Below, piece after piece: positions 1 through 25,463 of a stretch of DNA of 64,000 nucleotides. Positions within the stretch are counted from its first letter, which is position 1. Every line of letters starts with the position of its first letter. The stretch spans positions 6,590 through 70,589 of the forward strand of contig CAVVEY010000014.1 in the NCBI GenBank assembly GCA_963747385.1, written 5' to 3'. The position numbers and the translations under genes are program-made. This stretch comes from an uncultured bacterium (GTDB lineage: Bacteria > Krumholzibacteriota > Krumholzibacteriia > Krumholzibacteriales > Krumholzibacteriaceae). The notes beneath the pieces are model-generated. The model saw only the letters and a list, made by a program, of their open reading frames with translations. It ran no database searches and was not told the origin of the DNA.

Positions 1-216
1 TTCGCGACGGCTCTCCTGATACCAGGGACGCTGGGTGCGGCGACGCCGGGCGCGTGTTTCGACACGCCGTCCAGGATGGCGGACTCGCCGGCGCCGTTCT
101 CGTTTTCCATAGATCCGCATCCCGGTAGCGGGGAGATCCGCGGAGCATTCACGCCTGAAAACGACACGCAAGAAGAGAGCTGGGGTGCGATCGAGTCTCT
201 GTACAGGCAGGGTTAA
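1..216 (+). CDS. 3' end of a CDS (5' part outside window) whose product ends in the WGAI-x-SL-aromatic tail shared with the small secreted paralog family
   Basis: Frame 1 is open from base 1 to TAA 214-216. Translation ends ...AFTPENDTQEESWGAIESLYRQG*. The tail resembles ...TNWGAIKSLF* of 320-877, 1077-1640 and 14563-15180. Confidence 0.5.
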   Translation, partial: FATALLIPGTLGAATPGACFDTPSRMADSPAPFSFSIDPHPGSGEIRGAFTPENDTQEESWGAIESLYRQG

Positions 217-319: not shown

Positions 320-877
320 ATGAAGAAGGCGTTGCTAATTGCTGCTGCGGTTATGTTCGTAGCGACCTCGGCTTCCGCGGTTCTTCCGCCGATCGGTTAC
401 ATCGGTATTTTCGCTGATGCCGCGCATTCGGTGAATTCTGTTTGTCCGGCTGCGTACGCCGGGTTCCCGGCCTGGATCTATATTCTCCCGAGCGAGGACG
501 GCATGCAGGCGGCCGAGTGGGCCGTCAGCTTCCCGGCGACGGTCATTACGCTCGCTACCGTCCAGCATCCGAACATCACCGTCGCTCTCGGCACGCTCGC
601 CGGCGGCATCAGCGTCGCGTTCGGCGAGGGCCAGTGCAACATGGATTGGGTTTGGACGCATCAGCTTACCCTGATGTCGCTCGCGGCGAATGTCCCGGTC
701 AGGGTCGATATCATTCCGCACCCGGCGACCCTTCCGGTTCCGGCGTATCAGGCGGCGACCTGCGAGCTCGGTTACCCGATCCAGCCCCTCATCTACTTTA
801 CGCCCCTGTATCTCTGTCAGGAAGGTGCTCTGGGCGTTCAGGAGACGAACTGGGGAGCGATCAAGAGCTTGTTCTAA
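320..877 (+). CDS. Small secreted Cys-containing protein, WGAIKSLF-tail family, copy 1
   Basis: ATG at 320 is preceded by GAGGAGG. Signal peptide is MKKALLIAAAVMFVATSASA. The protein is collinear with the paralogs (VLPPIGYIGIF, MQAAEWAVSFPAT, CNMDWVWTHQL, ATCELGYP, LYLC) and ends QETNWGAIKSLF*. Confidence 0.85.
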   Translation: MKKALLIAAAVMFVATSASAVLPPIGYIGIFADAAHSVNSVCPAAYAGFPAWIYILPSEDGMQAAEWAVSFPATVITLATVQHPNITVALGTLAGGISVAFGEGQCNMDWVWTHQLTLMSLAANVPVRVDIIPHPATLPVPAYQAATCELGYPIQPLIYFTPLYLCQEGALGVQETNWGAIKSLF

Positions 878-934
878 AGCTGCGGCGCTACGGAGCGACC
901 CGATCGTTTCGGGGAAACTCGTAGCAGAGACTGG

Positions 935-968
935 AGGGGGTTCTCTGCAGAGCAGAGAACCCCCGTTT
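935..968 (+). terminator. Rho-independent terminator of paralog copy 1
   Basis: 13-bp perfect stem GGGGGTTCTCTGC / GCAGAGAACCCCC with a 3-nt loop, followed by GTTTT. Confidence 0.7.
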
Positions 969-1076
969 TAGAAAAGGGGGTGGTGGAGGCAAGAAGGGAC
1001 AGCAATTGCTCGGAAGAGTTGTGACGCATGACATCGAGCAGCAACGTGGGTTTGCTAGTTTGAGGAGGACAATCAG

Positions 1077-1640
1077 ATGAAGAAGGCGATTCTTCTAGCA
1101 GCGGCGATCATGTTCGTAGCCAGCTCCGTTTCCGCGGTTCTCCCGCCCGTCGGCTACATCGGCATTTTCAAGGACGGGACGCACAATACGTCTCCGGGCG
1201 CGAACGTCATTTGCCCGGCTCTGTACGGACAGTTCCAGGCCTGGATATGGATTCTCCCGCCCGCGACCGGCATGCAGGCAGCCGAGTGGGCCGTCAGCTT
1301 CCCGGCGACGACCGTAACGCTCGCCACCGTTCAGCACCCCTCCATCAGCGTCGCCCTCGGCACCCTCGCCGGTGGCATGAGCGTCGCGTTCGCTGAAGGC
1401 GCCTGCAATATGGATTGGGTTTGGACGCATCAGCTCACCATGATGACGCTGGCCGCGATCCCGACGAAGATCGAGATCATCAAGCACCCGACGACTCAGC
1501 CGCCGGCGTATCAGTTCGCGACCTGCGAGCTCGGTTACCCGATCGTGCCCGCGATCTATCTGACGCCCCTGTACCTCTGCATGGACGGTACCGTCGGCGT
1601 TCAGGAAACCAACTGGGGAGCGATCAAGAGCTTGTTCTAA
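1077..1640 (+). CDS. Small secreted Cys-containing protein, WGAIKSLF-tail family, copy 2
   Basis: ATG is preceded by GAGGAGG. Signal peptide is MKKAILLAAAIMFVASSVSA. There is high amino-acid and nucleotide identity to copy 1 (for example GGCATGCAGGC.GCCGAGTGGGCCGTCAGCTTCCCGGCGACG is shared). It ends QETNWGAIKSLF*. Confidence 0.85.
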   Translation: MKKAILLAAAIMFVASSVSAVLPPVGYIGIFKDGTHNTSPGANVICPALYGQFQAWIWILPPATGMQAAEWAVSFPATTVTLATVQHPSISVALGTLAGGMSVAFAEGACNMDWVWTHQLTMMTLAAIPTKIEIIKHPTTQPPAYQFATCELGYPIVPAIYLTPLYLCMDGTVGVQETNWGAIKSLF

Positions 1641-1674
1641 GTTCTCTCGCCGTACTCGGTGGTTAGTGTGAAAA

Positions 1675-1702
1675 CGATGGGGATCCCCGAGGATCCCCAT
1701 CG
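1675..1702 (+). other. Intergenic 12-bp stem-loop between paralog copies 2 and 3 (no U-tract)
   Basis: CGATGGGGATCC-CCGA-GGATCCCCATCG. Confidence 0.3.
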
Positions 1703-1739
1703 CCGTCAATGGGCGTCGCAATCGAGGCGGGCAGGCATC

Positions 1740-2324
1740 ATGAGACACACCATTCTTCTGGCAGCGGCGATCGTCGCGACTCTCGCGGGTTCGGCGGGCG
1801 CGAAGCTTCCCCCGCGGGGGAACATCTCGCTCTACGCCGACGGGGCCCGTTCGTACAGCGCCTACTGCGCGGTTCCCTGGGGCTTTTCCGTCGCGAAGGC
1901 CGAGGTCTGGGTGTGGTGCCAGCCGGGCGAAAACGGGCTTTGGGGCGTCGAATGCGCCGTCGCCTATCCGTCGAACGTGGTGGCCGACCGGGTGACGTAC
2001 AACGTCGACCTTGCAACGAGGCAGGGGAACCTGCTCGAGGGGATATCGGCCGCGTTCGGGACGTGTCAATGGGACTGGGCCTGGGTCGCGCATCAGACGC
2101 TGTACGTGACCTCGCTCGAGCAGACGTATCTCGAGGTCGCGGTCTATCCGGCGTCCGGGTTCTTCCGGTTCTTCACCTGCGGCGAGGGAAATCCGGCGGA
2201 GCCGTGTCTGAAAGGCACGAATCTCTACCTGAACGCCGCGGCTGCTCCGTGCCTTCCGCCCGAGACGGCCATCGGCGCCGGGAGCTCGACGTGGGGAGCG
2301 GTGAAGAATCTTTTCGGCACGTAG
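1740..2324 (+). CDS. Small secreted protein, divergent member of the WG-tail family, copy 3
   Basis: Internal ATG of ORF 1659-2324. Signal peptide is MRHTILLAAAIVATLAGSAGA. It shares KLPPRGNISLYADG, ECAVAYP, CQWDWAWVAHQ and FTCGEG with the other copies and ends SSTWGAVKNLFGT*. Confidence 0.75.
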   Translation: MRHTILLAAAIVATLAGSAGAKLPPRGNISLYADGARSYSAYCAVPWGFSVAKAEVWVWCQPGENGLWGVECAVAYPSNVVADRVTYNVDLATRQGNLLEGISAAFGTCQWDWAWVAHQTLYVTSLEQTYLEVAVYPASGFFRFFTCGEGNPAEPCLKGTNLYLNAAAAPCLPPETAIGAGSSTWGAVKNLFGT

Positions 2325-2484: not shown

Positions 2485-5400
2485 TTGAGAAAGCCTGATC
2501 GAATTCGGCCTGTATGCCTTTTCGTGCCGGCCCTTCTCGTTCTCCTTGTTCTCGCGGGAGCGGCCGCGGCTCGCGAGGACGGAGCGCGCCTCGTTTCCTC
2601 CGCCGGCGGCTCCGTTACGTTCGAGGTGACGGTCCCCGGGGCGCGCATGGTTCCCGCGCCCGGAGGCGCGGTGAGGCTTGCAATAGACGGATACGGAACG
2701 TTTTCCCCGCCGGGCGCCGTCGAGCTCCCCGGCAGGACTTTTCGCGTCGCCATCCCGCAGTACGGCGAGCCCCGCGTCTCGGTGACGGTGATCGAGGAGG
2801 AGCGCCTCGGGCCTTTGAATCTCGTCCGCGTGCCGGGCGAACGGCTCGTCGAGGGTGAAAACGGCATACCGGTCACGGAACAGTACTATCCCCCCGATCC
2901 ATGGGCGAACGGCGGGGGCCTGCCGCTCTACGAGGCGCTCGGGGCGTCGTTCATGGGCCGCCAGAGGATTCTGCCGATCAGGATCAATCCGCTCGTCCTC
3001 GACGCCGGCGGCGCGCGGCTCGCCCGCAGGCTGTCGGTGACGGTGAGCTTCGGGACCGCGCTCGCGCCATCCGGGACCGACGCTCTCGTGCAAGCTCCCC
3101 TTGCGGGCGCGTGGAAGCGGCTCTATGACGAGCTCCTCGTCAACCCCGGCGACGCGGCGAAATTCCGGAAACCGCTCGACCGGACGCGCGCCTTCGCGGC
3201 GGCGGAGGCGGGGAAGAAGCTCAAGATCCGGATTCCCGAGACGGGCGTTTATTATATGCGCGCCGATTCTCTCATCGCCGCCGGGCTTTCGGCCGGGCTT
3301 GCGACGGGGGAGCTCGCGCTCAAGAAATACTACTACGACGAGACGAGACCCGATCTTCTGAGGACCGTCGACGTGCCGGTCTTCTTCGTCGAGGACGCGG
3401 GGACGGCGCCGGGCGTTTTCGACGGGAGCGATCTCGTCTATTTCTACGCGTTCGGGCTCAAGGACGACGCGGAGGCGCTCGATGCGAACGCTCTCTTCGC
3501 CGCCGACAACGTCCTCTGGCTCGAGGAAGAGGCCGCAGGATCGTCCATGCCCCTGATCCCCCCGGCTCCTCCGGGCGCGCTGGATACGCTCCGCCAGTTC
3601 GCCGCGACGATGAAATACCGCACGGACACCTGGTACATGAAGAACGCGGTTCCGGGGACGTTCGACTTCTATTACGCGAAGGGGCCGGTGGTAAGGGAAT
3701 CGGCGGTGCCGTTCGATCTGCCGTCTCCGGCGTCCACGGGGACCTTTTCGCTGACGTTTCGACTGCAGGGAAACGACCCGTTGAGCGTCACGCACACCGT
3801 TTCGTTCAGTGTCCGGAACTCCGCGGGGACGCGCACGCTCGGGACGGGCAGCTTCTATTCCAAGGAGGCGAGGAACTACACGTTCGCGGGGCTTTCCGCC
3901 TCCTGGCTCGTCGCCGGCCTGAACGAGCTCGTCATCACATGCGACGCGGACTACAAGTATCTCATCAACGATTTCACGATCGCGTACCCGGCGCTCTTCG
4001 TCGCGAGCGGCGACAGGCTCGAATTCGCGGTGAATCCGCTCTACGAGCCCGCCGCGATCGCCATTTCGGGCTTCTCCGCGAACAGCGGCTTTCTCGTCGA
4101 TATCACGAATCCCCGCAGCCCGTCGTATCGCGCGCTCGGCCCGTCGGATTTCGTCCCGGCCGGGGGCGGCTACCGGCTCGCGATCGACTTCGGCGAATCG
4201 TCGGCGACGCGCAGGTTCATCGCCTTCAGGGGCGCCGCCGCGACCCGTCTCGCGGTGCGCTCGGTCTCCGTCGACGCGCCGTCGCGTCTCCGCGAAACGG
4301 CCGGGGCGTACCAGTCGCTCGTCATCTCCCACGGGAATTTCATGACGCGCAGCGCCGAGTACGCCGCCTGGAGGAGGAGCCAGGGCTACCGCGTGCTCCT
4401 CGCGGACGTCGAAGACGTCTACGACGAATTCAACGGCGGGCTCCCGAACGCGAGCGCGATCAAACGCTATATCAAGTACGGGTTCGATCGTTGGGGCGTG
4501 GAGTACGTTCTCCTCGTGGGGGACGCGAGCGAGGATCACAAGCGGATCATCTACGGGCCGAATCCCGACCTGCAGGGATCCCCTCCCGATTATGTCCCCT
4601 CCTTCACCTACTCGACGAGCGTGAGCGGCACGTATGACGACGAGGTCATCTATTCCGATAGATACTATTCGTTTCTCGACGAGGCCGTTCCCGTCTTCTC
4701 GGGGATGGCCGGGGCATCCCTTCTTCCGGGCGGTTACCCTGACGTTTTCATCGGCAGGCTTCCCGTCGGAAGGGACGTGGAGCTTCGGGCCGTCATCAAC
4801 AAGATGAACCGCATGGAGACTCCGCAGCCCGACGACTGCATGGCGCCGCCGCGTCGTCCTCTTCTCCGACGACGCATGGTCCGGCCGCGGAAACGACTAC
4901 ATGTATCGATCGTACGAGTACGAGTTCGAGCGAAGCACCGACAGCTGCGCCGCGGCGGTGGAACGGGCGCTCCCCGGAGGATTCGACGTGCAGAGGCTCC
5001 ACCTTTCCCTGTATACCGATCCGATCCATCCCAACAGGACCGAGAGCGGCGCGGCGGTTCTGAGCAAAGCCACGACCGAGACGCGAAGGACCTTCACTCC
5101 GGCGCTGAACAAGGCGCTCAACCGGGGATGTCTCTGGTACATGTTCCAGGGGCACGGGAACCGGGCCGTTCTCACGACGGAGTCCGCCTACTCCCTCGGA
5201 TGGTATATGGATCCCGACAGCCTGCGGATCTACACGCCGTTCATATTCGTCGGCGTCGGCTGCCACATCAGCGATTTCGCCATCCAGGCGGAGTACAACA
5301 CGTTCGGCGAGACGGGGCCGTACGGCGATTGCATGAGCGAGCAGCTCCTCTTCAAGTCCGGAGCGGGCGCCGTCGCGACGTACGCGAGCGCCGGATTCGA

Positions 5401-6569
5401 GTATCTCTCCCAGAACGCCGTGCTCGTCGAGCGGCTGCACAGGGTCCTGTTTCAGGCGCTCCCCGCCGACTCGGTCGGGCCGCGCAACGAATACACCGGC
5501 GCCCACTGGGTATTCGGCGAGGCGATCGCGAAGGCGGAGATCGAGCAGATCGACAACACCTCGTACGGGACCGAGCAGGTGTTCCGGTATTGCGTCCTCG
5601 GCGATCCGATGCTCAAGATCGATCCGGGTCCCCCGCTCATGCGGCTCGAGGCCGATTCGGCGGGCGAATACCGCGTCGTGTCGAGCGGCGATACGATGAG
5701 GGCCCGCGACGGCGCGAACCTGATCAAGCTGCGCCTCACGGTGAGCGACATCGTGGCGATCGGGCGCGTTACATTGAGGGTGAACGGCGAGGACAGCACC
5801 GGCTCGCTGCGGATCGTTCCGCTCGTCGACGCCGACAAGACATTCGCCCGTTCGTACCGGGTCGACTACGACTATACGATCGACCCGAACGACGATATGC
5901 TGCTCTTCCAGGTGTTCTCGCCCGACGGCCGCGAGGTCGGCCGTTTCGAGATCCCGATCCTGACGAGCGTGCGGGCGTTCTACGGCGATTTCAGCTACGA
6001 GATCGGCGCCGGCGCCGAATCGCCTCCCTCCGGCACCTTCATCGTGACGGCCGATTTCCCCTCGTATCTCACGGAAGCGCCGGTGCTTTCCATCGACGGC
6101 GTCATCCAGGCGGGTATCGTCTTCACGGCGGGCGGTCCGGATCGGCCGCTGTACTGGAAGGCCGTGTTTCAAAGGACGCTCACGGGCGGGTTGCACGTAT
6201 TCACGTTGAACGCCGGGGATTTTTCCCGGAATATCTCGTTCAACGTCACGGGGAACGATCTCGTCGCGAGCGCCTTCAGCCTCCCCAATCCTTTCAGCAG
6301 GGAAACGAGCATCGTTTACAGCATCAACCTCGCCGTCGAATCGGTGACGATCGACATCTACAACGTGAGCGGCGTGCTGATCAGGAGCCTCAATCCGCCG
6401 CCCGGCAGGCTCGGACCCGCGAGCTTCGCCCGCCCTCACGCCGTCCTCTGGGACGGGCGCGACCTCGCCGGGGACCGCGTCGCGAACGGCACGTACATCT
6501 ACGTGATCCATATCAGCCGGCTCGGGGAAGACGATCGACATCAAGGGAAAGAGCGTCAAGCTCGAATAA
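2485..6569 (+). CDS. Peptidase C25 (gingipain-like) with FlgD-Ig / T9SS-type C-terminal domain; reading frame broken twice in this assembly
   Basis: TTG start after GAGGTG, then a signal peptide. C25 hallmarks are present: SLVISHGNF..., LLVGDASEDH, FIGRLPVG, then (after a shift near 4837) AWRRRVVLFSDDAWSG, FQGHGN and VGVGCHISDF (His/Cys dyad). The C-terminus reads LPNPFSRETSIVYSI...IYNVSGVLIRSL...WDGRDLAGDRVANGTYIYVIH. After a second shift near 6512 it reads SAGSGKTIDIKGKSVKLE*, with TAA at 6567-6569. Confidence 0.8.
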
Positions 6570-6682: not shown

Positions 6683-7396
6683 TTGAAGAAGCGTCTCGCG
6701 GCCCTCAAGAAGAAGGAAAAACGCCTCATTGTCGGGATCGAAACGGGGCCAACCCCCGGCAAGCTCGGGGCCGCTCTCGTCGAGGTTTCGGGGAGCGGAG
6801 ACGATACGGTTCTGTACCTGCGCGGCTTCACGAGCCGTTCCCTGGATCCGGAGCTTCTGGCGACGATCGGCGCCCTCGACCGGAACGAGAAATTCGATTC
6901 GGAGGAGCTTGCCGGCATCAATTTCCTCGTCCTCAGCCATCTCTCGAAGCTGTACGACGACGTGCTCGAGAACGCCGCCGTGAAACCGGAGGATGTGGAT
7001 TGCGTCGGGCTCAGCTGCCTGGAAGTCGGGGAGCTCGCGTTTCCGGGCGATCCGTCCGTATTCAGCGAGATGACGAATCACGTCGTGGCGAGCCGGTTCA
7101 GAATAGGCGTGGAGAACGGGGCGGGCTCATTCGTCGCCGTCGAAGAGGCCCTTCTTCAGGGCATCGTGGGCGAGATGATCGACCGGTTCGGCCTGGATGA
7201 AGAGGTCCGGGAGGCGGTCGCCGTCGCGCTCCTCGCGAACGAATCGATCTTCCACGAGGGCGTGAGCGTATGCGAAGGAAGCGCCGGCGCGAAGGGCAAG
7301 GGGCGCAAGACCCTGCGGGCGATAAAGCACACGGGCGCTTCGTCCGCCGCGGCCGGAAGGGCGTGTCTGTGCGGAGAGTTCTTCTTTCCGGGTTGA
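6683..7396 (+). CDS. Short divergent AnmK-like (anhydro-N-acetylmuramic acid kinase-like) or ASKHA-fold protein
   Basis: TTG start 7 nt after GGAGG. It sits in the tail of the chimeric ORF 4901-7396. RLIVGIETGPTPGKLGAALVEV resembles the AnmK N-terminus (GxMSGTSxDGxDxALV), and the C-terminal ...CLCGEFFFPG resembles the AnmK end. It is only about 237 aa. Confidence 0.45.
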   Translation: MKKRLAALKKKEKRLIVGIETGPTPGKLGAALVEVSGSGDDTVLYLRGFTSRSLDPELLATIGALDRNEKFDSEELAGINFLVLSHLSKLYDDVLENAAVKPEDVDCVGLSCLEVGELAFPGDPSVFSEMTNHVVASRFRIGVENGAGSFVAVEEALLQGIVGEMIDRFGLDEEVREAVAVALLANESIFHEGVSVCEGSAGAKGKGRKTLRAIKHTGASSAAAGRACLCGEFFFPG

Positions 7397-7400
7397 ATAT

Positions 7401-8774
7401 ATGAGAAGGTGCGATCGTCGGTCTCTCGCGGCCTTCTTTTTTTTCGCGCTCGTCCTCTCGGGGTGCGGAGAGAAGCGCATGACGATGGAAAGCCCTTCCG
7501 TCGAGGCCGCGCCTCCCCGGGAGGTGCATTCCGCCGAAGGGCAGTCCGCCCCGCCGCCGCAGGAGCTGCTCCCCGCGGAGGATCTGATGCCGCGGGCGGT
7601 CTTCCTCTCCGAAGCCCCTCACGTCAGGATTTTCATCCTCGAATCTCGGCAGCCGTTGCGCGTGCGGATCACGTCCGCCTTCCGCGTCGGCGTGGATACG
7701 AAGACCGAGCCGATTGCGGCTATGGAGCGAGGCGGGGATTTTTCCGTCAGGCTCTCGGGAGGGGAGGCTGTGCTCGCGGAGGGAAAGCGGAGGCTCATCT
7801 CCTCCGGATCGGTCTCCGTCGAGCCTGAAGCGGATGGGCGGGTCTATCTCGGCGGGAAACCCTACCGGGGGCTCGTATGCTTCAGGCCGTTCAAGGGCGG
7901 CCTGATCGCGATAAATATTCTCGATATCGACGAGTATATCAAAGGGGTTCTCCCCTCGGAGATCGGGTATCTCAAGCCCCACCAGTTCGAGGCCTATCGC
8001 GCACAGGCCATTGCATCCCGCACCTACGCGTTGAGCAAGCTCGAGGAGAAGAAGGCCGATATCTACGACCTCAACGCGACCGTCATGGATCAGGTCTACC
8101 GGGGAGCCGGCGCCGAGCACGACCTGGCCTCCCGGGCCGTCGACGAGACGCGCGGGCTCGTTTGCACGTTCCTCGGCGAGCCGATCAAGGCGTACTACTG
8201 CTCCTGCTGCGGCGGGCATACGGCCGATATCCGGATCGCCTGGCCCTGGAAGACCCCCTATCCCTATCTCCATGGCGTGAGGGACACCGTCCGCGAGACC
8301 TCCGGCGAATCGCTCTGCCGCGGTTCGAAGCACTTTCGGTGGCGCGTGCACTGGAGCGGTTCGGCCCTCTCCGGGATTCTCAAGCGGACCGTGCCGAAGG
8401 AGCTCAAGGTTCCCGTTCGAGGCGTGGGACGGCTCGTCGATATCAGAACGATCGGCACCGCGCCCGACGGCAGGACCGCCGGTATCGAGATCGTGACCGA
8501 CCGGGAAAGCTTCGAGGTCCGGGGGGACCGTGTCCGGTGGGTTCTGAATCCCGATCCCGCGTCGGAGGCAATACTCAAGAGCACCCTTTTCAAGATCGAG
8601 GTCTCGGTTTCGGGGGACCGCCTGACGGCCGTGGACATGATCGGGGGAGGGAACGGGCACGGCGTCGGGATGTGCCAGACGGGCGCCATCCGCATGGCCG
8701 AGCTCGGGTACTCCGGCGAGGACATTATCGCTCATTACTATCCGGGCTCGCGCGTCGAGCCCGTCTACAGGTAG
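7401..8774 (+). CDS. SpoIID/LytB domain lipoprotein (peptidoglycan lytic/amidase-enhancer family)
   Basis: Lipobox LVLSGC. Also DEYIKGVLPSEI, EAYRAQAIASRTYAL, VMDQVYRG and YYCSCCGGHTAD, which are typical of SpoIID. Confidence 0.85.
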   Translation: MRRCDRRSLAAFFFFALVLSGCGEKRMTMESPSVEAAPPREVHSAEGQSAPPPQELLPAEDLMPRAVFLSEAPHVRIFILESRQPLRVRITSAFRVGVDTKTEPIAAMERGGDFSVRLSGGEAVLAEGKRRLISSGSVSVEPEADGRVYLGGKPYRGLVCFRPFKGGLIAINILDIDEYIKGVLPSEIGYLKPHQFEAYRAQAIASRTYALSKLEEKKADIYDLNATVMDQVYRGAGAEHDLASRAVDETRGLVCTFLGEPIKAYYCSCCGGHTADIRIAWPWKTPYPYLHGVRDTVRETSGESLCRGSKHFRWRVHWSGSALSGILKRTVPKELKVPVRGVGRLVDIRTIGTAPDGRTAGIEIVTDRESFEVRGDRVRWVLNPDPASEAILKSTLFKIEVSVSGDRLTAVDMIGGGNGHGVGMCQTGAIRMAELGYSGEDIIAHYYPGSRVEPVYR

Positions 8775-8777: not shown

Positions 8778-10338
8778 ATGGCCCGGGATTTTTTGCAGAG
8801 GCTCGCCCCGCATATGATCGTCGGGCTCGAGGGTCCCCGCCTCACCGACGACGAGAAGACGCTCCTCTCGAAATACGCCTTTCCCGGGATCATCCTTTTC
8901 GAGCGCAACGTCGCCGATTCGAGACAGCTCATGGAGCTCGTGCAGGGGATACGGAATATCTTCCGCAACTCGCACGGGACCGTGCCCCTTATCGCCGCGG
9001 ATCATGAGGGGGGCGTCGTATCCGTTCTCTCGCGGGCGATAGGAACTCCTCCCACGCAGATGGCCGCGGCGCGCGCGGGGGAGGCGCACCTCGTGGAGCG
9101 CCTGTTCGCCGAGAACGCGAGACGCATGCGCGCTTTCGGCGTCAACATGTTCCTCGGCCCGGTCGCCGACGTCAATTCCGATCCTTTGAATCCCGTCATC
9201 GGGACGAGGAGCTTCGGCGAGGCGACAGGGTTCGTTTCGTCGCTCGTTTCCGTCGCCGTCTCCGCGTCGAGGAGGGAGGGGGCGCTCACCTGCCTCAAGC
9301 ATTTCCCCGGCCATGGGCCTTCTCGCGTCGATTCTCACCTGGAGCTGCCGGTTCTCGGAGCGACTCTCGATCAGCTCAGGGAGAGAGACGTCCCCCCCTT
9401 TGCGAGCGGAATCGCCGCCGGGGCGGAGTCGGTGATGATCGGGCACATAGCGCCCCTCGGCCGCGCTCTTCCCGCGTCGCTCGATCCGGAGATCATCGGA
9501 GGATTGCTGCGCGGGGAGCTCGGCTTCGAGGGGGTCGTCATGACCGACGCTCTCGAGATGGAGGGGGTGAAGGGGGAAGGGACTCTTCTCGACATATGCG
9601 AGCGCGCCCTTGCGGCGGGCAACGATATTCTCCTTTTCTCGAAACCGGTCGCGAGCGTGGCGGGCGAGCTCGCTTCCCCCGGTGAAGCCGCCGAAGCGGA
9701 TGAGTTCCGCGGCGACGGCTTCGCGAGCGCGGAGGCGCTTTCGATCGCCCGAATCGAGAGACTCCTCGGCCTCGCCGGCGAAAGGGAGCGGGAATTCGAG
9801 CTCCCGGGCGATCCGGGCGTCTATCGCGAGATCGCCGAGAAATCGATTCTGGTCGCGTCAGGGCTCGATGGAGGCGCCGGCGGTCCGTTCCCCGGCGGGC
9901 AGGGGAAGGGTTTCAAAGCGATCTTCTGCTGCGAAAAAGGGGAGATCGATCGCTTTCCGACAAGGAATTTCGTCTTTCGCATCCTGCAGGGGTTGAAGGG
10001 CGGCGAAGGCGCGAAGAGCGAGGCTCAGGGGGCGATCTCGATCGGGCGCTACAGTCTGGAACGATACGAGGCGTTCCAGGCGCCGGCGCCTCATCTCGAG
10101 GCCTGGCTTTTTTCGTCGGAGAAATCAGACGCCGGCCCGGGACGCCGTGTTCCTGCTCAACAGGAGACCGCTTTCGGAGGACGCCGTGGCGAGGATGTGC
10201 TCGGGGGCGGGAATCGTCGTCGTCGCCGGATGGCCCTATGCCGCTCGTTTTGTCGGGAGCGGCCGGACGGTGATCACGACATTCGGTGTCTACGACGCCG
10301 CGGCGGACGCGGTATGCCGTTTGATAGGAGCGTATTGA
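8778..10338 (+). CDS. nagZ: Beta-N-acetylhexosaminidase NagZ (GH3), frame broken once near 10140
   Basis: AADHEGGVVSVL, GVNMFLGPVADV, KHFPGHG and VVMTDALEM match GH3. After ...SSEKSDAGP, the protein-like continuation DAVFLLNRRPLSEDAV...VCRLIGAY* is in frame +1 (ORF 10147-10338). The original frame becomes Arg-rich nonsense. Confidence 0.85.
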
Positions 10339-10362
10339 CGCCGCGAAGGCTCGAGAAACCGG

Positions 10363-10391
10363 TTGACACGAGGCGTTTTCTCTGGTATTTA
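10363..10391 (+). promoter_or_regulatory. Sigma70-like promoter upstream of tRNA-Asp
   Basis: TTGACA (10363-10368), 17-nt spacer, TATTTA (10386-10391), about 100 nt upstream of the tRNA. Confidence 0.4.
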
Positions 10392-10492
10392 TTGCTGGGC
10401 CGGCAGAAATGGTCGGCCGTTTTTGCTTCGAGCGTATTTTCAGGCCGGGCCGGATGCAGTGGCTCGGCAATTGCAGAAATAGGCTGTTCGGC

Positions 10493-10569
10493 GGGGTCGT
10501 AGTTCAGTTGGTTAGAACGCCTGCCTGTCACGCAGGAGGTCGCGAGTTCGAGTCTCGTCGGCCCCGCCA
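10493..10569 (+). tRNA. tRNA-Asp (anticodon GTC), CCA encoded
   Basis: Cloverleaf GGGGTCG TA GTTC AGTTGGTTA GAAC G CCTGC CTGTCAC GCAGG AGGTC GCGAG TTCGAGT CTCGT CGGCCCC G CCA. It is close to E. coli tRNA-Asp. Confidence 0.95.
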
Positions 10570-10619: not shown

Positions 10620-11930
10620 ATGCGATTTTCTGATTACCTGACCGAAACGTTTTGGGCTGCCGTCGACAAAGCCCTGCCCCTCATCTACGGCTTCGGCTAC
10701 ATATTTCTCGTCGCCCGCGTTCTTCCCAAGACGGAATTCGGCTGGCTGGCGCAGTTCGAGATCGTCTATTACTTCATCCTGATGCTGGACCTCGCGATCG
10801 CGCAAACCCCGATGGCCAAGTTCACCGCCGAGACAAAGGATTCGGTATGGGCCGTTCCCAACGGATTCTTTCTGAGTTTTGTCGTTCTTTCCGGCTCCGG
10901 CATCGCGTGCGTGGCGGCGAGGGGGTCGCTCGCGAGCTGGCTGAACGCTCCCGGTCTCGAGAATATTATCCCGAGCGTGCCGGTTCTGCTCGCGGCAGGC
11001 TATTTCAAGACTCTCTCCGGCCAGATCTGCGTGGCACGAAATTGGACGGGACGATTGGTCGTCATCGACGCCGTCTATTTTCTGGGCTCCCTGACGCTGT
11101 TGATGATCATGAGCTTTTCGGGCATGCTTTCGTCCGCGCGGCAGGTCATCCAGGCCAATATCTATCTGGCCTCCGCGGCCTCGCTCGTCGGCGTGCTCTT
11201 GACCTTCCCGGTGTTGAAACAGGTGAGCTGGCGTCTGCGCGGCGCTCACCTGCGACGCTTCCTCGCTTTCAGCCGCTATTCGCTGGGCGCGAGCTTCGGA
11301 GCCTATCTGAACGGCTTCATCGACGTCATTCTCGTCTCGCGTTTCCTGGGCACGGTGCCGGTCGGGATCTATCGCGCCGGAAAGATCATCTACCGCTTCT
11401 ACAACGCCTTCTCGCAAGCCGCGCAGGTGATCATTCTGCCGCTCGCTTCCCGATTCTCCGCCTCCGGCCAGATGGCCTCGCTGCGCGCCCTGTACGAGAA
11501 GTCGATCTATTTCTCCTATATGCTGCTCTTGCCGCTGAACGCGTTCCTGCTGCTCTCCGCCGATTGGATCGTCGCGCTGCTCTATTCCGGCAAGTATCCG
11601 GAAGCCGTCCCGGTATTTCGCTGGCTCCTGGTCGGCGCATTCTTCCTTCCGTGGGGCACCGTCGGCATCAACGTTCTCCTCGGCGCCGACAAGCCCAAGC
11701 TGAGCTTTCGCATCACCTGGGCCGTCGTGGCGGTCAACGCGGTGTTCAGCTACTTCTTCATACGGTCTTTCGGCGTCAACGGCGCCGCGATGGTGATTGG
11801 AATCACCTCCCTGGTCGGCGCTGTTCTCACCACGTACTACGCCAAATCCGTCGTCCGCTTTACCTGGCGGGGCATCTTCTCTCGGCACGTCGATGTTGCA
11901 AATTTCGCGAAAGCCATGAAACGATCATGA
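10620..11930 (+). CDS. Polysaccharide/oligosaccharide flippase (Wzx-like, MOP superfamily)
   Basis: 436-aa polytopic membrane protein with the layout typical of polysaccharide-biosynthesis (Wzx) proteins. Its stop overlaps the next ATG (ATGA). Confidence 0.8.
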   Translation: MRFSDYLTETFWAAVDKALPLIYGFGYIFLVARVLPKTEFGWLAQFEIVYYFILMLDLAIAQTPMAKFTAETKDSVWAVPNGFFLSFVVLSGSGIACVAARGSLASWLNAPGLENIIPSVPVLLAAGYFKTLSGQICVARNWTGRLVVIDAVYFLGSLTLLMIMSFSGMLSSARQVIQANIYLASAASLVGVLLTFPVLKQVSWRLRGAHLRRFLAFSRYSLGASFGAYLNGFIDVILVSRFLGTVPVGIYRAGKIIYRFYNAFSQAAQVIILPLASRFSASGQMASLRALYEKSIYFSYMLLLPLNAFLLLSADWIVALLYSGKYPEAVPVFRWLLVGAFFLPWGTVGINVLLGADKPKLSFRITWAVVAVNAVFSYFFIRSFGVNGAAMVIGITSLVGAVLTTYYAKSVVRFTWRGIFSRHVDVANFAKAMKRS

Positions 11931-13060
11931 TCTGCGCGCACTATCTTTCGAAGTACCTCGCCACGACGCTGAACTGGCTTCATGTCATTCTGCGTTCCAC
12001 CGATAGCTACGAGCCTGTCATGCTCGCGCGCACGACGAGCAATCTCGGGGATTTCCCGATGAAGAATCTCTATGCGCTTTCGGATCTTGCGCCTCCGCGT
12101 CGCCTCTACAATCTCGCCGTGTACAAGACTCTCGGATATTTCCCGCTCTTCTACAAGGCCGCCCGGGAGCACGACGTCGATCTTCTGCACGTTCATCTCG
12201 GCTACGACGGCTATAGAATGCTGCCGCTGAAGCGCAAATTGCGGGTTCCGATGGTTACGGGGTTTTTCGGAATCGACGCGTCGAAATATCTGCAATTGCC
12301 CGAATGGCGCGAGCGGTATCGGCGGCTGTTCGACGAAGGAGAATGCTTTCTGGCGCTGGGGCCGCGCATGCGCGAGGCCCTCGTCGACGCCGGGTGCCCG
12401 GCCGCGAAGCTGCAAATATTCCACGTCGCGATCGCCGTCGAGGAGTTCCCGTTTCGCGCGCGGGTTCTGCATGCGCGTGAAAGCGCGACGATTCTGATGG
12501 GAGCGACCTTTCGAGAGAAGAAGGGGATCGCCTACGCGCTGGATGCGATGGGGTCGCTCAGGAAGCGAGGCCTGCCGTTCAGATTCGTTCTCGCCGGAGA
12601 CGGGCCGCTCCGAGCGCAGATCGAGCGGCAGATTCTCGATCTGGATTTACGGCAGCATGTGGAGTTGCTCGGATACGTCGACCCTCTGGCTTTCCGCGGC
12701 CTGATGGAGCGCTCGCATATCGTGATCCTGCCGAGCGTGACGGCGAGCGACGGCGATACGGAGGGCACGCCTCTCGTTCTCGTCGAAGCTCTCGCGATGG
12801 GAATCCCCGTCGTGTCGACGATGCACGCCGACATTCCCGAAATCGTGAAAGACGGCGTGAACGGCTTTCTCGTGCCGGAAAGGGATTCCGGCGCGCTGGC
12901 GGAGCGGCTGATCCATCTCGTCGAGCATCCGGAATCGTGGGAGGTGATGGGCCGCGCCGGGCGCGAGCACGTCGCGGAGCAGTTCAACGCCGCGAAGCAA
13001 TTCGATAAATTAATGGGCATCTATTCCGGTCTTATCCGCACGCGGGAAGGCGCTTCATGA
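11927..13060 (+). CDS. Glycosyltransferase family 4 (GT-B)
   Basis: Real part of ORF 10652-13060, starting at ATG 11927. Motifs: FREKKGIAYALDA, LAGDGPLR, PSVTASDGDTEGTPLVLVEALAMGIPVVST and GFLVPE (E-x7-E type). Confidence 0.85.
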   Translation: MICAHYLSKYLATTLNWLHVILRSTDSYEPVMLARTTSNLGDFPMKNLYALSDLAPPRRLYNLAVYKTLGYFPLFYKAAREHDVDLLHVHLGYDGYRMLPLKRKLRVPMVTGFFGIDASKYLQLPEWRERYRRLFDEGECFLALGPRMREALVDAGCPAAKLQIFHVAIAVEEFPFRARVLHARESATILMGATFREKKGIAYALDAMGSLRKRGLPFRFVLAGDGPLRAQIERQILDLDLRQHVELLGYVDPLAFRGLMERSHIVILPSVTASDGDTEGTPLVLVEALAMGIPVVSTMHADIPEIVKDGVNGFLVPERDSGALAERLIHLVEHPESWEVMGRAGREHVAEQFNAAKQFDKLMGIYSGLIRTREGAS

Positions 13061-13800
13061 AAACGGCAGGGGAGATAAAGGAATATTACGACGAGTTCTC
13101 GAAATCGACCTTTCTCAGGGATTTTCGGATCGTCAATCTCCGACAGCAGGCGATCAGGAAGCTCTGCGATCGTTTCATCCCGCCCGGCGCGCGCGTCCTG
13201 GAAATAGGCTGCGGCGCGGGGATTATCTCGAAACATCTCGAACCGCGCGTATCCCGTCTCGTGGGGATCGACATCAGCGAAACCGCCGTGAAGATGGCGC
13301 AGCTGTACGTGACCGGCGACAAATGCGAGTTCACGGCGCTCGACGTCACGGGAGACGCGAGCGATCTGGAGCGGCACGAGAAGTTCGACGCGATACTCGT
13401 GCCTGACGTTCTCGAGCACATTCCGAAGGAGCGGCAGCGCGCGCTGTTCGAGCGGATCGAGAATCTTCTGGGACCTCGAGGAATCGTTTTGATCACGTAT
13501 CCGAGCCCGGAATATCAGGAGTACCTCCGGCGCAGCAGGCCCGAGCTCCTGCAGGTTGTCGACGAGACCCTGCGGCTTTCCGAGATACTGGCGATCACCT
13601 CGCTCCAGCCCCGGTATTTCGCCTACGTCGACGCGGGGGAGAGGAACCAGTACGTTCATCTGGCGCTCGCGCCGGCGATGGAGTACTCTCCGGAATCTCC
13701 GCCGGTCGACTTCGGGGGAAAGGTCGTTCGCAGGGCGCGGAAGACCCTGTGGAGATTGCGCAACGAGGCTTTTCTGCGCAAGGTGAAGAATGCTCTTTGA
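13057..13800 (+). CDS. Class I SAM-dependent methyltransferase
   Basis: VLEIGCGAGIIS SAM-binding motif, followed by DAILVPDVLEHI. Confidence 0.8.
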   Translation: MKTAGEIKEYYDEFSKSTFLRDFRIVNLRQQAIRKLCDRFIPPGARVLEIGCGAGIISKHLEPRVSRLVGIDISETAVKMAQLYVTGDKCEFTALDVTGDASDLERHEKFDAILVPDVLEHIPKERQRALFERIENLLGPRGIVLITYPSPEYQEYLRRSRPELLQVVDETLRLSEILAITSLQPRYFAYVDAGERNQYVHLALAPAMEYSPESPPVDFGGKVVRRARKTLWRLRNEAFLRKVKNAL

Positions 13801-14461
13801 GCGAAGCAAGAATGCGAAGCCGCATAACTGGCTGATACACCGTTACTGCGTGCGCTCCGTCAGGAAGAACGCCTCCCGCCTGAAGGGCAGCGTGCTCGAC
13901 ATCGGCTGCGGAATAAAACCGTATAAAGAGATCGTCGAGAAATACTGCACGGCGTATATCGGCCTGGATCGGCCGGCGTCCCTTCACGGCCTGAAAGAGG
14001 TCGAAGTCGCCGGCGACGCCCTCTTCCTTCCCTTCGGCGACGAGAGCTTCGATTCGGTCGTCTCGTTTCAGGTCATGGAGCACGTCACCGAGCCGCGGAT
14101 CTTCCTGTCGGAGGCGTTTCGCGTCATGAAGCCCGGCGGCACGGCGCTCTTGACGACCCCGTTCATGTGGGGCGAGCACGAGCAGCCGCACGATTATTTT
14201 CGTTACACGCGCTACGGCCTGCGCTATCTGGCCGAGAAGGCCGGTTTCGAGGTGATCGAGATCGAGCCCGACACGGGCTACTGGTCGACGGCGACCTTGC
14301 GGTTCAATTACTGGCTCAATCGTTTCGGCAAGGGGCCGCTGCGATATCTGCTGGCGCCGGTCTGGCTGAATCAGTATCTCGCGCTCTGGCTCGATCGTGT
14401 CGATCGATCCTACACCGCGGACACGGCGACCTTCACCTGCCTTCTCCGGAAGCCCCGCTGA
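13790..14461 (+). CDS. Class I SAM-dependent methyltransferase (type 11-like)
   Basis: VLDIGCG, FDSVVSFQVMEHV and MKPGGTALLTTP. Confidence 0.8.
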   Translation: MLFERSKNAKPHNWLIHRYCVRSVRKNASRLKGSVLDIGCGIKPYKEIVEKYCTAYIGLDRPASLHGLKEVEVAGDALFLPFGDESFDSVVSFQVMEHVTEPRIFLSEAFRVMKPGGTALLTTPFMWGEHEQPHDYFRYTRYGLRYLAEKAGFEVIEIEPDTGYWSTATLRFNYWLNRFGKGPLRYLLAPVWLNQYLALWLDRVDRSYTADTATFTCLLRKPR

Positions 14462-14562: not shown

Positions 14563-15180
14563 ATGAAACGCTCCATATTTCCTTCGATCGGTGTTCGCTG
14601 CCTTGCGATTGCTGCGGTTCTCTGTGTCGCAAGCTCCGTGTCCGCGGAACTTCCGGATGTCGGCTACATCGGGGTGTTCAAGGATGCGACTCATGACACC
14701 AGCCCGGCTTCGCGCGGAGCCGGTTATAATGTATGCCCGGCCCAGTACGAACAGTTCCAATGCTGGATCTGGTGCCTGCCGTGCTGGGAGGGAATGATGG
14801 GGGCGAAGTTCGCCGTCAGTTTCCCGCCGTCGACGGTCGTGATTCTCGAAACGGTCCAGAATCCCAACATCAGGGCCTCTGTCGGCACGCTTATAGAGGG
14901 CATCGAATTCGCTTTGAATGAGGATTTGTGCCAGATGGATTGGATGTGGACGCATCAAATCACAATGCTGCGGCTGGGTCTCCCGACAGTCTCTGACAAG
15001 ATCGGGATCGTTCCGCATTCCGATCCGTACATGGGCGGGCTTGGGTTCTATACCTGCTATGGCAAGCCTTTTCCGGTCCCCATCGATGTTCTAACTCCTC
15101 TGTATATCTGCTGGACCCCGGATCCTGGCCCCCTCGGCGTGCAGGATACAAGCTGGGGAGCGATCAAGAGCTTGTTCTGA
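14563..15180 (+). CDS. Small secreted Cys-containing protein, WGAIKSLF-tail family, dispersed copy 4
   Basis: ATG at 14563 after GGAGGGGG. Signal peptide ends ...CVASSVSA. It shares ELPDVGYIGVFKDATHD, FAVSFPPSTV, CQMDWMWTHQI and LYICW with the other copies and ends DTSWGAIKSLF*. Confidence 0.85.
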   Translation: MKRSIFPSIGVRCLAIAAVLCVASSVSAELPDVGYIGVFKDATHDTSPASRGAGYNVCPAQYEQFQCWIWCLPCWEGMMGAKFAVSFPPSTVVILETVQNPNIRASVGTLIEGIEFALNEDLCQMDWMWTHQITMLRLGLPTVSDKIGIVPHSDPYMGGLGFYTCYGKPFPVPIDVLTPLYICWTPDPGPLGVQDTSWGAIKSLF

Positions 15181-15232: not shown

Positions 15233-15272
15233 GAAAAGGGCTCCGAAGCTTGACGCTCCGGAGCCCTTTTTA
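15233..15272. terminator. Bidirectional rho-independent terminator between convergent genes
   Basis: AAAA-GGGCTCCG...CGGAGCCC-TTTTT: an A-tract and a T-tract flank the stem. A second hairpin, GCACAAA..TTTGTGC, lies just upstream. Confidence 0.7.
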
Positions 15273-15296: not shown

Positions 15297-15650
15297 TTAG
15301 AAGCGATCCCGGCCGCCGCCGCTGCCGCCCCTGCGACCGCCGCCGCCGCCACCACCGTAACCGCCGCCGCCGCCGAATCCGCCGCCGCCCCTGGGCTTGT
15401 CCTCGCGCGGCTGGGCTTCGCTGACCTTCAGCGCCCGACCGTCGACGTCCTTGCCGTTGAGAGCTGCGATGGCCTTATCGGCCTCTTCGTTGTTGTCCAT
15501 CTCGACGAAACCGAAGCCCCTCGAGCGATCCGTGAACTTGTCCTTGATCACGCGCGCGGAGGTGACGGCGCCGAAAGGCGCGAAAATCGAATTCAACTGG
15601 TCGTCGTTCGTGTCGAACGACAGGTTGCCTACGTAAATCTTCTTTGCCAT
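15297..15650 (-). CDS. Glycine-rich RNA-binding protein (single RRM)
   Basis: MAKKIYVGNLSF (RNP-2) and RGFGFVEM (RNP-1), with a C-terminal tail RGGGGFGGGGGYGGGGGGGRRGGSGGGRDRF. Confidence 0.9.
   Translation of the reverse strand: MAKKIYVGNLSFDTNDDQLNSIFAPFGAVTSARVIKDKFTDRSRGFGFVEMDNNEEADKAIAALNGKDVDGRALKVSEAQPREDKPRGGGGFGGGGGYGGGGGGGRRGGSGGGRDRF
15346..15437. repeat. 92-nt tract identical to 16166-16257 (within the two RRM genes)
   Basis: Direct comparison of the two genes shows an uninterrupted identical run covering the Gly-rich tail and the end of the RRM. Flanking coding sequence is clearly diverged. Confidence 0.8.
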
Positions 15651-16113: not shown

Positions 16114-16470
16114 CTAATAACGGTCGCGACCGCCGCCACCGCCGCCGCCCCTGCGGCCACCGCCACCGCCACCACCGTAACCGCCGCCGCCGCCGAATCC
16201 GCCGCCGCCCCTGGGCTTGTCCTCGCGCGGCTGGGCTTCGCTGACCTTCAGCGCCCGGCCGTCCACGTCCTTGCCGTTGAGCTCGGCGATCGCCTTATCG
16301 GCTTCCGCGTTGTTTTCCATCTCGACGAAACCGAAGCCGCGGGAGCGACCGGTGAGCCGGTCCATGATGACGTTGGCCGAGGTTACCGCGCCATAGGATT
16401 TGAAAAGCTGATTCAGCTTATCGTCGTTCGTATCGAACGATAGGTTGCCGACGTATATTTTCTTAGACAT
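16114..16470 (-). CDS. Glycine-rich RNA-binding protein (single RRM), paralog
   Basis: Start at MSKKIYVGNLSF (internal Met of ORF 16114-16500), RGFGFVEM, and a Gly/Arg-rich tail ending GGGRDRY. Confidence 0.9.
   Translation of the reverse strand: MSKKIYVGNLSFDTNDDKLNQLFKSYGAVTSANVIMDRLTGRSRGFGFVEMENNAEADKAIAELNGKDVDGRALKVSEAQPREDKPRGGGGFGGGGGYGGGGGGGRRGGGGGGGRDRY
16166..16257. repeat. 92-nt tract identical to 15346-15437
   Basis: See the partner repeat. The offset between the two copies is exactly 820 nt. Confidence 0.8.
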
Positions 16471-16706
16471 TGCACAGAATCCTTTCACTTGCCTTTTCAT
16501 GAGTTCGAAAATTAACTCAACGTTGCCGCTGTTTCCTGACCGATACGTTCACCTCTCTTTTTCTCCCGGAATCCAGAATCATGCACGCCCGGGGCTGCGT
16601 CACCCCGAAGACGCGCGCCGCTTCACGAGATTGACTGCGAACCTGATTGTCGGGGAGAGTGTACTACTGGGGGACCGACAAGACCAGCGATTTTTTATCA
16701 ACACTG

Positions 16707-23525: not shown

Positions 23526-24668
23526 TCAGCCTCTCCTGAAGACCGCGACGGTCTCCGCATGGTACGTCGCGGGGAAGAGGTCGACGAGATTGATCTCGGA
23601 GAGGATATAGCCCGCCTCGATGAGCGCCTTCGCGTCCCGCGCGAAGGTCGGCGGATCGCACGAGACGAAGATGAGCTCCTGAGGCTTGATCCTGATTATT
23701 CCCTGAAGCACCGCTTTCGGAAGCCCCAGACGCGGCGGATCGACCATGATGAGGTCGTATCCGCCGAGCCTCCCGATCTCCTTCTCCGCGTTGCCGCGCC
23801 GGAACTTCGCGTTCGCGACCCCGTTGAGCCTCGCGGCCGCCGTGGCGTTCCGCGCCGCGGCCTGATTCTGCTCGATGCCGAACGCCTCGATCGCCATTTT
23901 CGCGAGGGGAAGGGTGAAGAATCCCGCGCCGCAGTAGAGGTCGAGGAGCTTCCGGCGCACGGCGCCGGGGAGCGAGACGACGAGCTCGACAAGAGATGTC
24001 GCGAGGAAGCGGTTGACCTGGAAGAAGGAGTCGTGGCTCACGGGGAACATGAGGCCGCCCGCCTCCATGAGGACCTCGGGAGGTCCCGGGCGGTCGAGAA
24101 GTCCCCAGAAATGCACCGCGCCGAACTTGTCCATCCGAACGCGGACCTCGGTGAGCGGTTCGAACGACTCGCTCGGGATCTCGGCGATCGCCTTTCTCAT
24201 TTCCTCGGGGAGCAGCAGGCATCCCTGCGGCGGGAAGGGAACGAGGGTATCCGATTCCCGCATGAGGAATCCCGGCCGTCTCTCGGCGTCGACCTTGAAA
24301 ATGGCGTGGTTCCGGTATCCGTAGCGTTCGGGGCAGGGAATGACGCGCTTGAACTCGGTCTTGGTCTTCCCGATGCGTTCGAGGTCCTCGAGGACGCTCT
24401 CGCGCTTGACCTTCATCTCGTCCTCGTAGCCGAGGTGCTGCAGGTGGCAGCCGCCGCACGAGCCGAAGACGGGGCATTCGGCCTCGCGCCGCAAGGGAGA
24501 GGGCTCGACGATGCGATCGATGCGGCCGAATATGATATTCTTCTTCTCGCGCACGGCGGTGAACTCGACCGTGTCTCCGGGCGCCGCGTACGGTATGAAC
24601 GCGGTCTTGCCCTCGACGAAGGCGAGGCCGTAGCCTCCGTGAACGATCTTCTTGATTTCAGCTATCAT
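23526..24668 (-). CDS. 23S rRNA (uracil-5-)-methyltransferase RlmD/RumA family (TRAM plus Fe-S Cys cluster plus SAM methyltransferase)
   Basis: Start at MIAEIKK. Contains CPVFGSCGGCHLQHL, LDLYCGAGFFTLPLA, DPPRLG and FVSCDP. Confidence 0.85.
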   Translation of the reverse strand: MIAEIKKIVHGGYGLAFVEGKTAFIPYAAPGDTVEFTAVREKKNIIFGRIDRIVEPSPLRREAECPVFGSCGGCHLQHLGYEDEMKVKRESVLEDLERIGKTKTEFKRVIPCPERYGYRNHAIFKVDAERRPGFLMRESDTLVPFPPQGCLLLPEEMRKAIAEIPSESFEPLTEVRVRMDKFGAVHFWGLLDRPGPPEVLMEAGGLMFPVSHDSFFQVNRFLATSLVELVVSLPGAVRRKLLDLYCGAGFFTLPLAKMAIEAFGIEQNQAAARNATAAARLNGVANAKFRRGNAEKEIGRLGGYDLIMVDPPRLGLPKAVLQGIIRIKPQELIFVSCDPPTFARDAKALIEAGYILSEINLVDLFPATYHAETVAVFRRG

Positions 24669-24800
24669 GCCAAGAGATATAACAGTCCGCCCGCCCCGGC
24701 GAAACACATTTCTCGGAGAATCAGCCCGCTTGCCGGCAACTTACCCTTTACCGGCGGGCCGCCGGAGACTATACTCGCCCGAAATAACGGGGAGTTCCGC

Positions 24801-25454: not shown

Positions 25455-25463
25455 GGAGCGAAT

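Follow-up and report, generated by a model that had tools for sequence, protein, structure and literature searches.

What does a short C-terminal sequence, repeated almost unchanged at the ends of several exported proteins, do for its carriers? This question is raised by a 64,000-nucleotide stretch of DNA (hereafter, the window; contig CAVVEY010000014.1) from an uncultured bacterium of the Krumholzibacteriaceae. C-terminal tags determine the destination of exported bacterial proteins, and the earlier tag classes, i.e. LPXTG, PEP-CTERM and the C-terminal domain (CTD) of the type IX secretion system (T9SS), each led to a machinery of their own and allowed surface proteomes to be predicted. A first-pass annotation, made from the letters of the window alone, had described four paralogous genes, each encoding a protein with a signal peptide, collinear conserved blocks and the tail WGA[IV]K[SN]LF. 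The present analysis revealed that this tail is a portable, strictly C-terminal tag on exported proteins, used as an alternative to a T9SS CTD or a dockerin. The tag is absent from the domain libraries and the literature that were searched.

Inspection of the open reading frames, protein alignment and a six-frame search all confirmed the existence of the four paralogs. Three of the genes form a tandem array (320-877, 1077-1640 and 1740-2324), the fourth (14563-15180) lies within a polysaccharide-biosynthesis cluster, and all are on the plus strand, each with a GGAGG-like ribosome-binding site and an AxA-type signal peptide. In full-length alignments with paralog 1, the amino acid sequence identity was 74% for paralog 2 (tail NWGAIKSLF), 51% for paralog 4 (tail SWGAIKSLF) and 35% for paralog 3 (tail TWGAVKNLFGT), which represents a divergent subfamily. 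The alignment of all four proteins contains 44 invariant columns, and these include the tail and three Cys residues. The collinear blocks described earlier hold overall; in gene 3 (KLPPRGNISLYAD, LYLNAAAAPC) and gene 4 (YTC-Y) several of them are only approximate, and in gene 3 two further residues come after the tail. In paralog 1 the signal peptide (residues 1-20) is followed by a predicted cohesin-like beta-sandwich (approx. 22-170), a linker and the tail NWGAIKSLF (DNA positions 851-874). Paralogs 1, 2 and 4 use the same 24 nucleotides to encode WGAIKSLF (851-874, 1614-1637 and 15154-15177), although paralog 4 shares only 51% protein identity. Since synonymous sites do vary across 157 tails from other loci, local gene conversion or codon bias may be the cause.

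With a relaxed pattern a fifth tail, WGAIESLYRQG directly before a stop codon, was detected at 181-215. It belongs to a mini gene (P0269) truncated by the start of the window, of which the 3' part (1-215, plus strand) is present. The whole gene encodes 78 aa, comprising a signal peptide, approx. 45 residues and the terminal sequence ...EESWGAIESLYRQG. Its homologs (46-111 aa) consist of a signal peptide, the sequence GVYFD… and then …ICPDLVGTQEESWGAIKSLYR, with tails that have decayed in some cases. The mini gene looks like an internally deleted member of the family, as judged from its sequence, conserved in synteny upstream of the array.

The six-frame search of the complete 64 kb identified WGAIKSLF three times and WGAVKNLF once, in each case 0-2 codons from a stop, and nowhere else. 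The tail comprises 9-12 residues and in general has the form [S/T/N]-W-[G]-x-[I/V/L]-K-x-[L/M]-[F/Y] plus 0-2 residues, often R or K. About 100 of 150 family representatives end in this tail and 34 end in a CTD; in 82 of the 86 representatives whose tail fits the strict pattern, the motif is followed by 0-2 residues. In multi-copy relatives the tail is absent between domain copies. Almost all family members (188/199) begin with a signal-peptide-like sequence. Synonymous codons vary at every position of 157 non-redundant tails; the constraint therefore acts on the peptide and not on the RNA, and an RNA-level explanation was rejected on this ground.

According to the first-pass annotation, its reading would fail if the motif were not enriched at C-termini; the motif proved to be strongly enriched there. 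Species-representative genomes were scanned with a DNA pattern coding for WGAIKxLF, with viral contigs as the control; the counts obtained are lower bounds, and the host phyla are the names under which the metagenome-assembled genomes (MAGs) are deposited. Among the matches listed, 80 of 125 were located at most 12 codons from a stop, whereas the viral contigs yielded 91 matches with 5 in such a position (Fisher p = 5e-20), none of them convincing. About 20 of the matches listed are members of the same family as the window paralogs. At least 25 other tail-bearing exported proteins with signal peptides have bodies unrelated to it, including beta-helix/POMP-repeat, CBM9-like, CARDB, diheme-cytochrome-like, cupredoxin-like and choice-of-anchor-R-like domains. 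The tail was found in Krumholzibacteria, Eisenbacteria, Poribacteria, Fermentibacteria, Latescibacteria, UBP1 and Gemmatimonadetes, as well as in unclassified MAGs. Variant tails (WGSIKAMFR, WGMIKSMYR, WSSIKALFR) cluster in loci that carry the tail, with 13 extra occurrences compared with 1 in control loci. One Eisenbacteria locus (L174) contains four tail genes within 7 kb, ending in TTWSSIKALFR, STWGMIKSMYR, STWGSIKAMFR and TTWGAIKTLFR, so that clustering of tagged genes extends to this phylum. Pfam and NCBIfam scans of the other tail-bearing proteins yielded no model covering the tail, and a literature search on the tail motif, on T9SS in Krumholzibacteria and on sorting signals in Eisenbacteria yielded nothing relevant.

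Tag exchange was examined with a beta-helix protein of Eisenbacteria. Of its 120 best homologs, approx. 92 have the tail at their end, approx. 19 have a T9SS CTD there and 2 have a Pfam dockerin, and the proteins with a CTD or a dockerin never carry the tail as well. Within this set the motif was found at most 6 residues from the C-terminus 92 times and internally once. Signal-peptide-like N-termini were present in 84 of 93 tail-carrying beta-helix proteins. In total, 1720 homologs were detected for one beta-helix family, and most of the best-scoring ones carry the tail. This mutual exclusion of tail, CTD and dockerin suggests a role in localisation.

It also bears on the possibility that the tail has no targeting role, being either a structural element of the family or a degradation (quality-control) tag for a periplasmic tail-specific protease. 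Prc/Ctp-type proteases recognise non-polar C-termini, which the tail would suit, and the degraded mini genes keep the tail. Against this, many unrelated bodies carry the tail and domain copies in the interior of proteins lack it, which means that it forms no structural part of the fold of the window proteins. The mutual exclusion with CTD and dockerin would likewise be hard to reconcile with such a tag, as would the strong purifying selection on apparently abundant proteins with strong ribosome-binding sites and their own terminators. We regard this explanation as very improbable.

What kind of signal the tail might be was examined from its sequence and predicted structure. The first-pass annotation was correct in stating that it does not resemble LPXTG, PEP-CTERM, GlyGly-CTERM or a T9SS CTD: none of the corresponding models matched, and a tripartite signal was rejected since only 0-2 residues follow the motif and there is no NCBIfam match. 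Its suggestion of a likeness to the outer-membrane beta-signal did not survive. According to this idea, the tail would be a beta-signal or another motif recognised by the beta-barrel assembly machinery, as could be expected because these proteins are exported and have an aromatic residue at their C-terminus or close to it. However, the aromatic residue is the last one in only 20 of the 86 strict-tail representatives, and in approx. three quarters it is followed by one or two residues, or more. The tail is predicted to be a helix and not a strand, its hydrophobic residues are spaced i, i+3, i+6, i+7, which is a helical and not an alternating pattern, and the bodies are soluble beta-sandwiches (of approx. 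150 residues in the window proteins), beta-helices and cytochrome-like domains, not barrels. The beta-signal reading was therefore rejected, and we assign it a next to negligible probability. In the AlphaFold model of paralog 1 the tail region (172-185, pLDDT below 50) is detached from the fold and of low confidence; the tail pLDDT is 43-61, with a short helix at 178-184 in this model and at 184-192 in that of paralog 3. Inspection of the sequences and of their consensus suggested an amphipathic pattern and an N-cap residue before the W.

The body of the proteins was equally unfamiliar, as the first-pass annotation had stated. None of the four paralogs had a Pfam match at E ≤ 1 or an NCBIfam match. 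A word-indexed search yielded 172 homologous proteins and an exhaustive search 915 (as representatives at 50% identity), all of them unnamed or annotated as "hypothetical protein", the named ones being from Candidatus Krumholzibacteria MAGs. AlphaFold models were obtained for paralog 1 (80-sequence alignment; pLDDT 88, core 22-170 above 95) and for the divergent paralog 3 (pLDDT 90, core above 95). When compared with the PDB using Foldseek, the top 23 matches of the first model and the top 7 of the second were all cohesins (E 3e-5 to 6e-4). The cohesins matched included 1g1k, 6kgf, 4dh2, 2vo8 and 4ums (E 3e-5 to 1e-3, target-normalised template-modelling score 0.55-0.74), represented cohesin types I, II and III, and comprised the anchoring scaffoldin ScaE (2zf9). 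Both models are beta-sandwiches, in agreement with the nine-stranded jelly-roll fold that defines cohesin modules. A profile of the family produced only a non-significant match among PDB sequences (5lxv, E 0.9). Pfam and PDB sequence searches miss the cohesin relationship, so that the likeness of the family to cohesins is confined to the fold. As modelled, the body represents a new, sequence-divergent cohesin-like family.

The larger members of this family (mostly 460-2466 aa) contain 1-3 copies of the module, usually N-terminal, and end in a T9SS type-A CTD, without the tail. In the largest of them the module (or modules) is followed by Big_5 or fn3 repeats. One giant relative with the module at its tip adjoins CLIPPER/OmpA adhesin genes.

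The next gene after the array (2485-6569, plus strand) encodes a PorU-like C25 peptidase, a homolog of the T9SS sortase, which has retained a CTD-like end. An intact ortholog of this peptidase had its best NCBIfam match to the T9SS sortase PorU (NF033707; E 3.7e-51, below the curated cutoff) and covered positions 3-760 and 959-1080 of the 1095 in the profile. The gene in the window carries two single-base insertions (at approx. 4837 and approx. 6520) relative to the related loci L001, L236 and L250 and reads in three frames. These frameshifts may be due to a sequencing or assembly error or may indicate a pseudogene. In L001, a syntenic locus in a long-read MAG, the middle paralog (10705-11325) is also frameshifted, and the presence of indels in this MAG too supports an assembly error as the cause.

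The PorU-like gene is followed in the window by three plus-strand genes that form a conserved downstream block: an AnmK-like N-terminal fragment (237 aa, 6683-7396), a SpoIID/LytB-domain protein (7401-8774) and a beta-N-acetylhexosaminidase of glycoside hydrolase family 3 (NagZ-like, 8778-10502). The order mini gene, 2-3 paralogs, PorU-like gene, AnmK-like fragment, SpoIID/LytB and NagZ-like GH3 was found in at least 12 metagenome loci, in which the C25 peptidases share 54-89% identity. The conserved gene order downstream of porU thus connects the gene for the T9SS sortase with a block of peptidoglycan recycling.

The first-pass annotation had also considered the tandem paralogs to be individually terminated, which held for some of them. 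RNA folding revealed hairpins (all plus strand) after paralog 1 (931-971; GC-rich 13-bp stem followed by GUUUUAG, z -3.7, terminator-like), paralog 2 (1675-1702; 12-bp stem, no U-run, z -2.4) and paralog 4 (15233-15271; stem followed by UUUUUAC, z -2.6, resembling an intrinsic terminator). A consensus terminator scan had missed them because they lack long U-runs, and a scan for consensus sigma-70 promoters found zero sites. Folding found no hairpin downstream of paralog 3 (z +1.7), and the gene continues into its neighbour; paralog 3 is thus probably co-transcribed with the porU-like gene.

These observations raise the possibility that the tail is a T9SS-coupled sorting signal. The PorU-like sortase, or a partner of it, would recognise the tail and perhaps cleave it, and the protein would be linked covalently to a surface glycolipid in the manner of CTD cargo, albeit by means of a minimal signal. 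The array lies directly upstream of the PorU-like gene in at least 12 loci, with no terminator between gene 3 and this gene, and tail and CTD interchange on homologous bodies. CTD cargo genes are neighbours of tail genes in at least 11 of 42 tail loci, and CTD-type proteins are present in all tail-bearing lineages seen. A small-residue linker (E-T/S-S/T/N) precedes the W, and genes of O-antigen type are abundant in the window. The organism encodes both T9SS components and CTD cargo, as represented by the PorU-like neighbour and by an M1 aminopeptidase with a C-terminal FlgD_ig domain similar to a T9SS type-A CTD (42233-44269, minus strand). This peptidase is probably T9SS cargo, judging from its sequence, and because it carries the FlgD_ig CTD, the organism uses cargo signals of T9SS type. 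On the other hand, T9SS recognition requires a folded Ig-like CTD of 70-100 residues, whereas the tail comprises only 9-12 residues and is predicted to be helical. The proximity to PorU was moreover seen only for the cohesin-like family in Krumholzibacteria and UBP1 and is not observed in Eisenbacteria or other phyla, and there is no sign in the data that the tail is cleaved. We therefore consider coupling to T9SS unlikely.

In 25 or more related loci, the gene immediately preceding the array encodes a 222-aa Cys-rich secreted protein (8999-9667 in L001, where a TetR-OEP-RND efflux operon lies before it). The last 60 residues of this protein matched PDB dockerins (2y3n_B, E 5e-4) and a GC-type dockerin model (E 1.3e-4). 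A search of the window itself for dockerin-like motifs detected none. According to another idea, the tail is itself a kind of "mini-dockerin", i.e. the ligand of the cohesin-like module, by which tagged enzymes would dock on CTD-anchored giants while the small proteins would form head-to-tail polymers or serve as adaptors. Tail and true dockerin do alternate on homologous beta-helix bodies, the giant relatives are scaffoldin-like (1-3 modules, Big_5 repeats, CTD), and the small proteins pair module and tail as adaptor scaffoldins pair cohesin and dockerin. However, AlphaFold leaves the tail undocked on the module in cis, and the real dockerin gene, as a conserved neighbour, provides a more conventional ligand. 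Dockerins possess a duplicated 22-residue Ca-binding repeat (approx. 60-70 residues in all), which a tail of 9-12 residues lacks. The cohesin-like family was also not detected in the Eisenbacteria loci richest in tails, a weak argument as these comprised 8-kb blocks only. Taken together, we judge this explanation to be quite improbable.

The explanation that we favour, tentatively and with a probability of roughly 45%, is that the paralogs are envelope-tethered adaptor modules of cohesin type that carry a previously undescribed localisation tag. Each would be exported by the Sec pathway and consist of one cohesin-like module, a short flexible linker and the C-terminal tag of 9-10 residues. The tag would form a short amphipathic helix, with an N-cap before the W, one face made up of W, I, L and F, and K/R at the flanks, and would hold the exported proteins at the envelope non-covalently, either at the membrane interface or through a dedicated receptor. 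The window proteins would then resemble anchoring scaffoldins as small tethered adaptors of cohesin type, and the most likely ligand of the module may be the putative dockerin of the upstream 222-aa secreted protein. The array would be expressed beside the PorU-like T9SS sortase, the last copy probably together with it. This architecture would parallel that of the giant relatives, in which the module forms the tip and a T9SS CTD presumably serves as the anchor. An exported or surface role, as proposed in the first-pass annotation, is in any case plausible.

Several points weigh against this adaptor model. The cohesin assignment comes from the fold, with neither a Pfam Cohesin nor a PDB sequence match. 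The dockerin match of the 222-aa protein is below the curated cutoff (22 vs 29 bits) and is accompanied by no Pfam match, and the dockerin gene lies outside the window, its placement being deduced from relatives. A nine-residue helix alone is a weak anchor. The W, G and K of the tail are nearly invariant across phyla, so that recognition by a specific protein fits better than generic membrane affinity. If tail-bearing proteins cross the outer membrane, the model leaves this step unexplained. Furthermore, neighbourhood clustering identified no conserved partner gene adjoining tail genes in other phyla.

The tail might instead be the signal of an undescribed sorting or surface-anchoring pathway with its own receptor or processing enzyme, operating beside T9SS in Krumholzibacteria, Eisenbacteria and neighbouring candidate phyla, with the porU-adjacent cohesin-like proteins as a part of it or as its main clients. 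The first-pass annotation had likewise proposed looking for a co-occurring conserved gene as a candidate sorting or processing enzyme. Clustering of the neighbourhoods of 42 tail loci, together with three Eisenbacteria contexts, brought up nothing but CTD cargo genes and the cohesin-like family, and no such gene emerged. We regard a separate pathway as somewhat doubtful.

The window also contains a large O-antigen-type envelope-polysaccharide gene set (10620-14461, 23559-28689 and 39935-53502), which includes three Wzx/MurJ-like flippases, GT2 and GT4 glycosyltransferases, a DegT aminotransferase, two methyltransferases, Wzz and a Wzy/O-antigen-ligase-like protein. A short distance downstream of paralog 4, two minus-strand genes (15297-15650 and 16114-16500) encode paralogous glycine-rich RNA-binding proteins of RRM type, with the RNP motifs IYVGNL and RGFGFVEM and the tail GGGGYGGGGGGGRRGG. 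Another minus-strand gene (29328-32705) encodes an unusual fusion protein of 1125 aa, in which two retropepsin-like aspartyl protease domains are combined with a PDZ domain and a metallo-beta-lactamase/beta-CASP/RMMBL region (RNase J/CPSF-like).

The cohesin-like fold, the presence of the tag on unrelated proteins in other phyla and the PorU-like identity of the next gene had all gone unnoticed in the first-pass annotation. The tag is short, without a membrane-spanning segment, and is carried by hundreds to thousands of proteins; the cohesin-like family alone comprises approx. 900 clusters at 50% identity. To our knowledge, the tag-bearing phyla have no cultured representatives, and recognition of the tag would help to annotate those of their secreted proteins that are now labelled "hypothetical". 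The nine-residue peptide also offers a concrete handle for a receptor search. In addition, the occurrence of a cohesin-like family beside a dockerin gene and PorU suggests surface assembly of cohesin-dockerin type in diderm candidate phyla of the FCB (Fibrobacterota-Chlorobiota-Bacteroidota) group.

Among known systems, the closest in fold are the cohesins of scaffoldins, such as ScaE of Ruminococcus flavefaciens (one cohesin plus LPXTG) and SdbA/OlpB of Clostridium thermocellum (cohesins plus SLH). Scaffoldins and the window proteins share a layout in which one module precedes an anchoring element at the C-terminus (putative in the latter); both also have a dockerin-bearing protein encoded adjacently (in the relatives of the window) and a sortase-type enzyme next door. 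In contrast to scaffoldin cohesins, the window proteins match neither Pfam Cohesin nor PDB cohesin sequences. Their host belongs to a diderm candidate phylum in the FCB group and not to the Firmicutes, a nine-residue tag replaces LPXTG or SLH, there is no link to cellulose degradation, and dockerin binding is putative.

The T9SS type-A CTD (Por_Secre_tail/FlgD_ig-like, sorted by PorU) resembles the tail in its C-terminal position on Sec-exported proteins of the same organisms, in its interchange with the tail on homologous bodies and in the adjacent PorU homolog. It is, however, a folded Ig-like domain of 70-100 residues, whereas the tail has 9-12 residues, is predicted to be helical and matches no CTD model; none of the four paralogs matched Por_Secre_tail, FlgD_ig or TIGR04183. 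The tags recognised by sortase (LPXTG), exosortase (PEP-CTERM) and rhombosortase (GlyGly-CTERM) are similar in being lineage-restricted signals that many exported proteins with unrelated bodies have in common, often with several in one genome, in clusters. Unlike these tripartite signals, the tail lacks a transmembrane helix or a basic cluster after the motif, and no processing enzyme was identified for it.

Only in its predicted form does the tail resemble the amphipathic membrane-targeting helices of MinD, FtsA and PBP5/6, which are short, C-terminal and attached by a flexible linker, with an aromatic/aliphatic face and flanking Lys/Arg; the tail of Escherichia coli MinD (...KGFLKRLFGG) shows a similar pattern. 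The helices of MinD and FtsA are cytoplasmic, while the tail proteins are exported, and the W, G and K of the tail are near-invariant, more so than lipid binding alone would need. Finally, the giant relatives with an N-terminal module, a Big_5/fn3 stalk and a CTD are built like the fibrillar adhesins of diderm bacteria (tip, stalk repeats and anchor). The window proteins differ from these adhesins in having no stalk, the module being joined directly to the tag.

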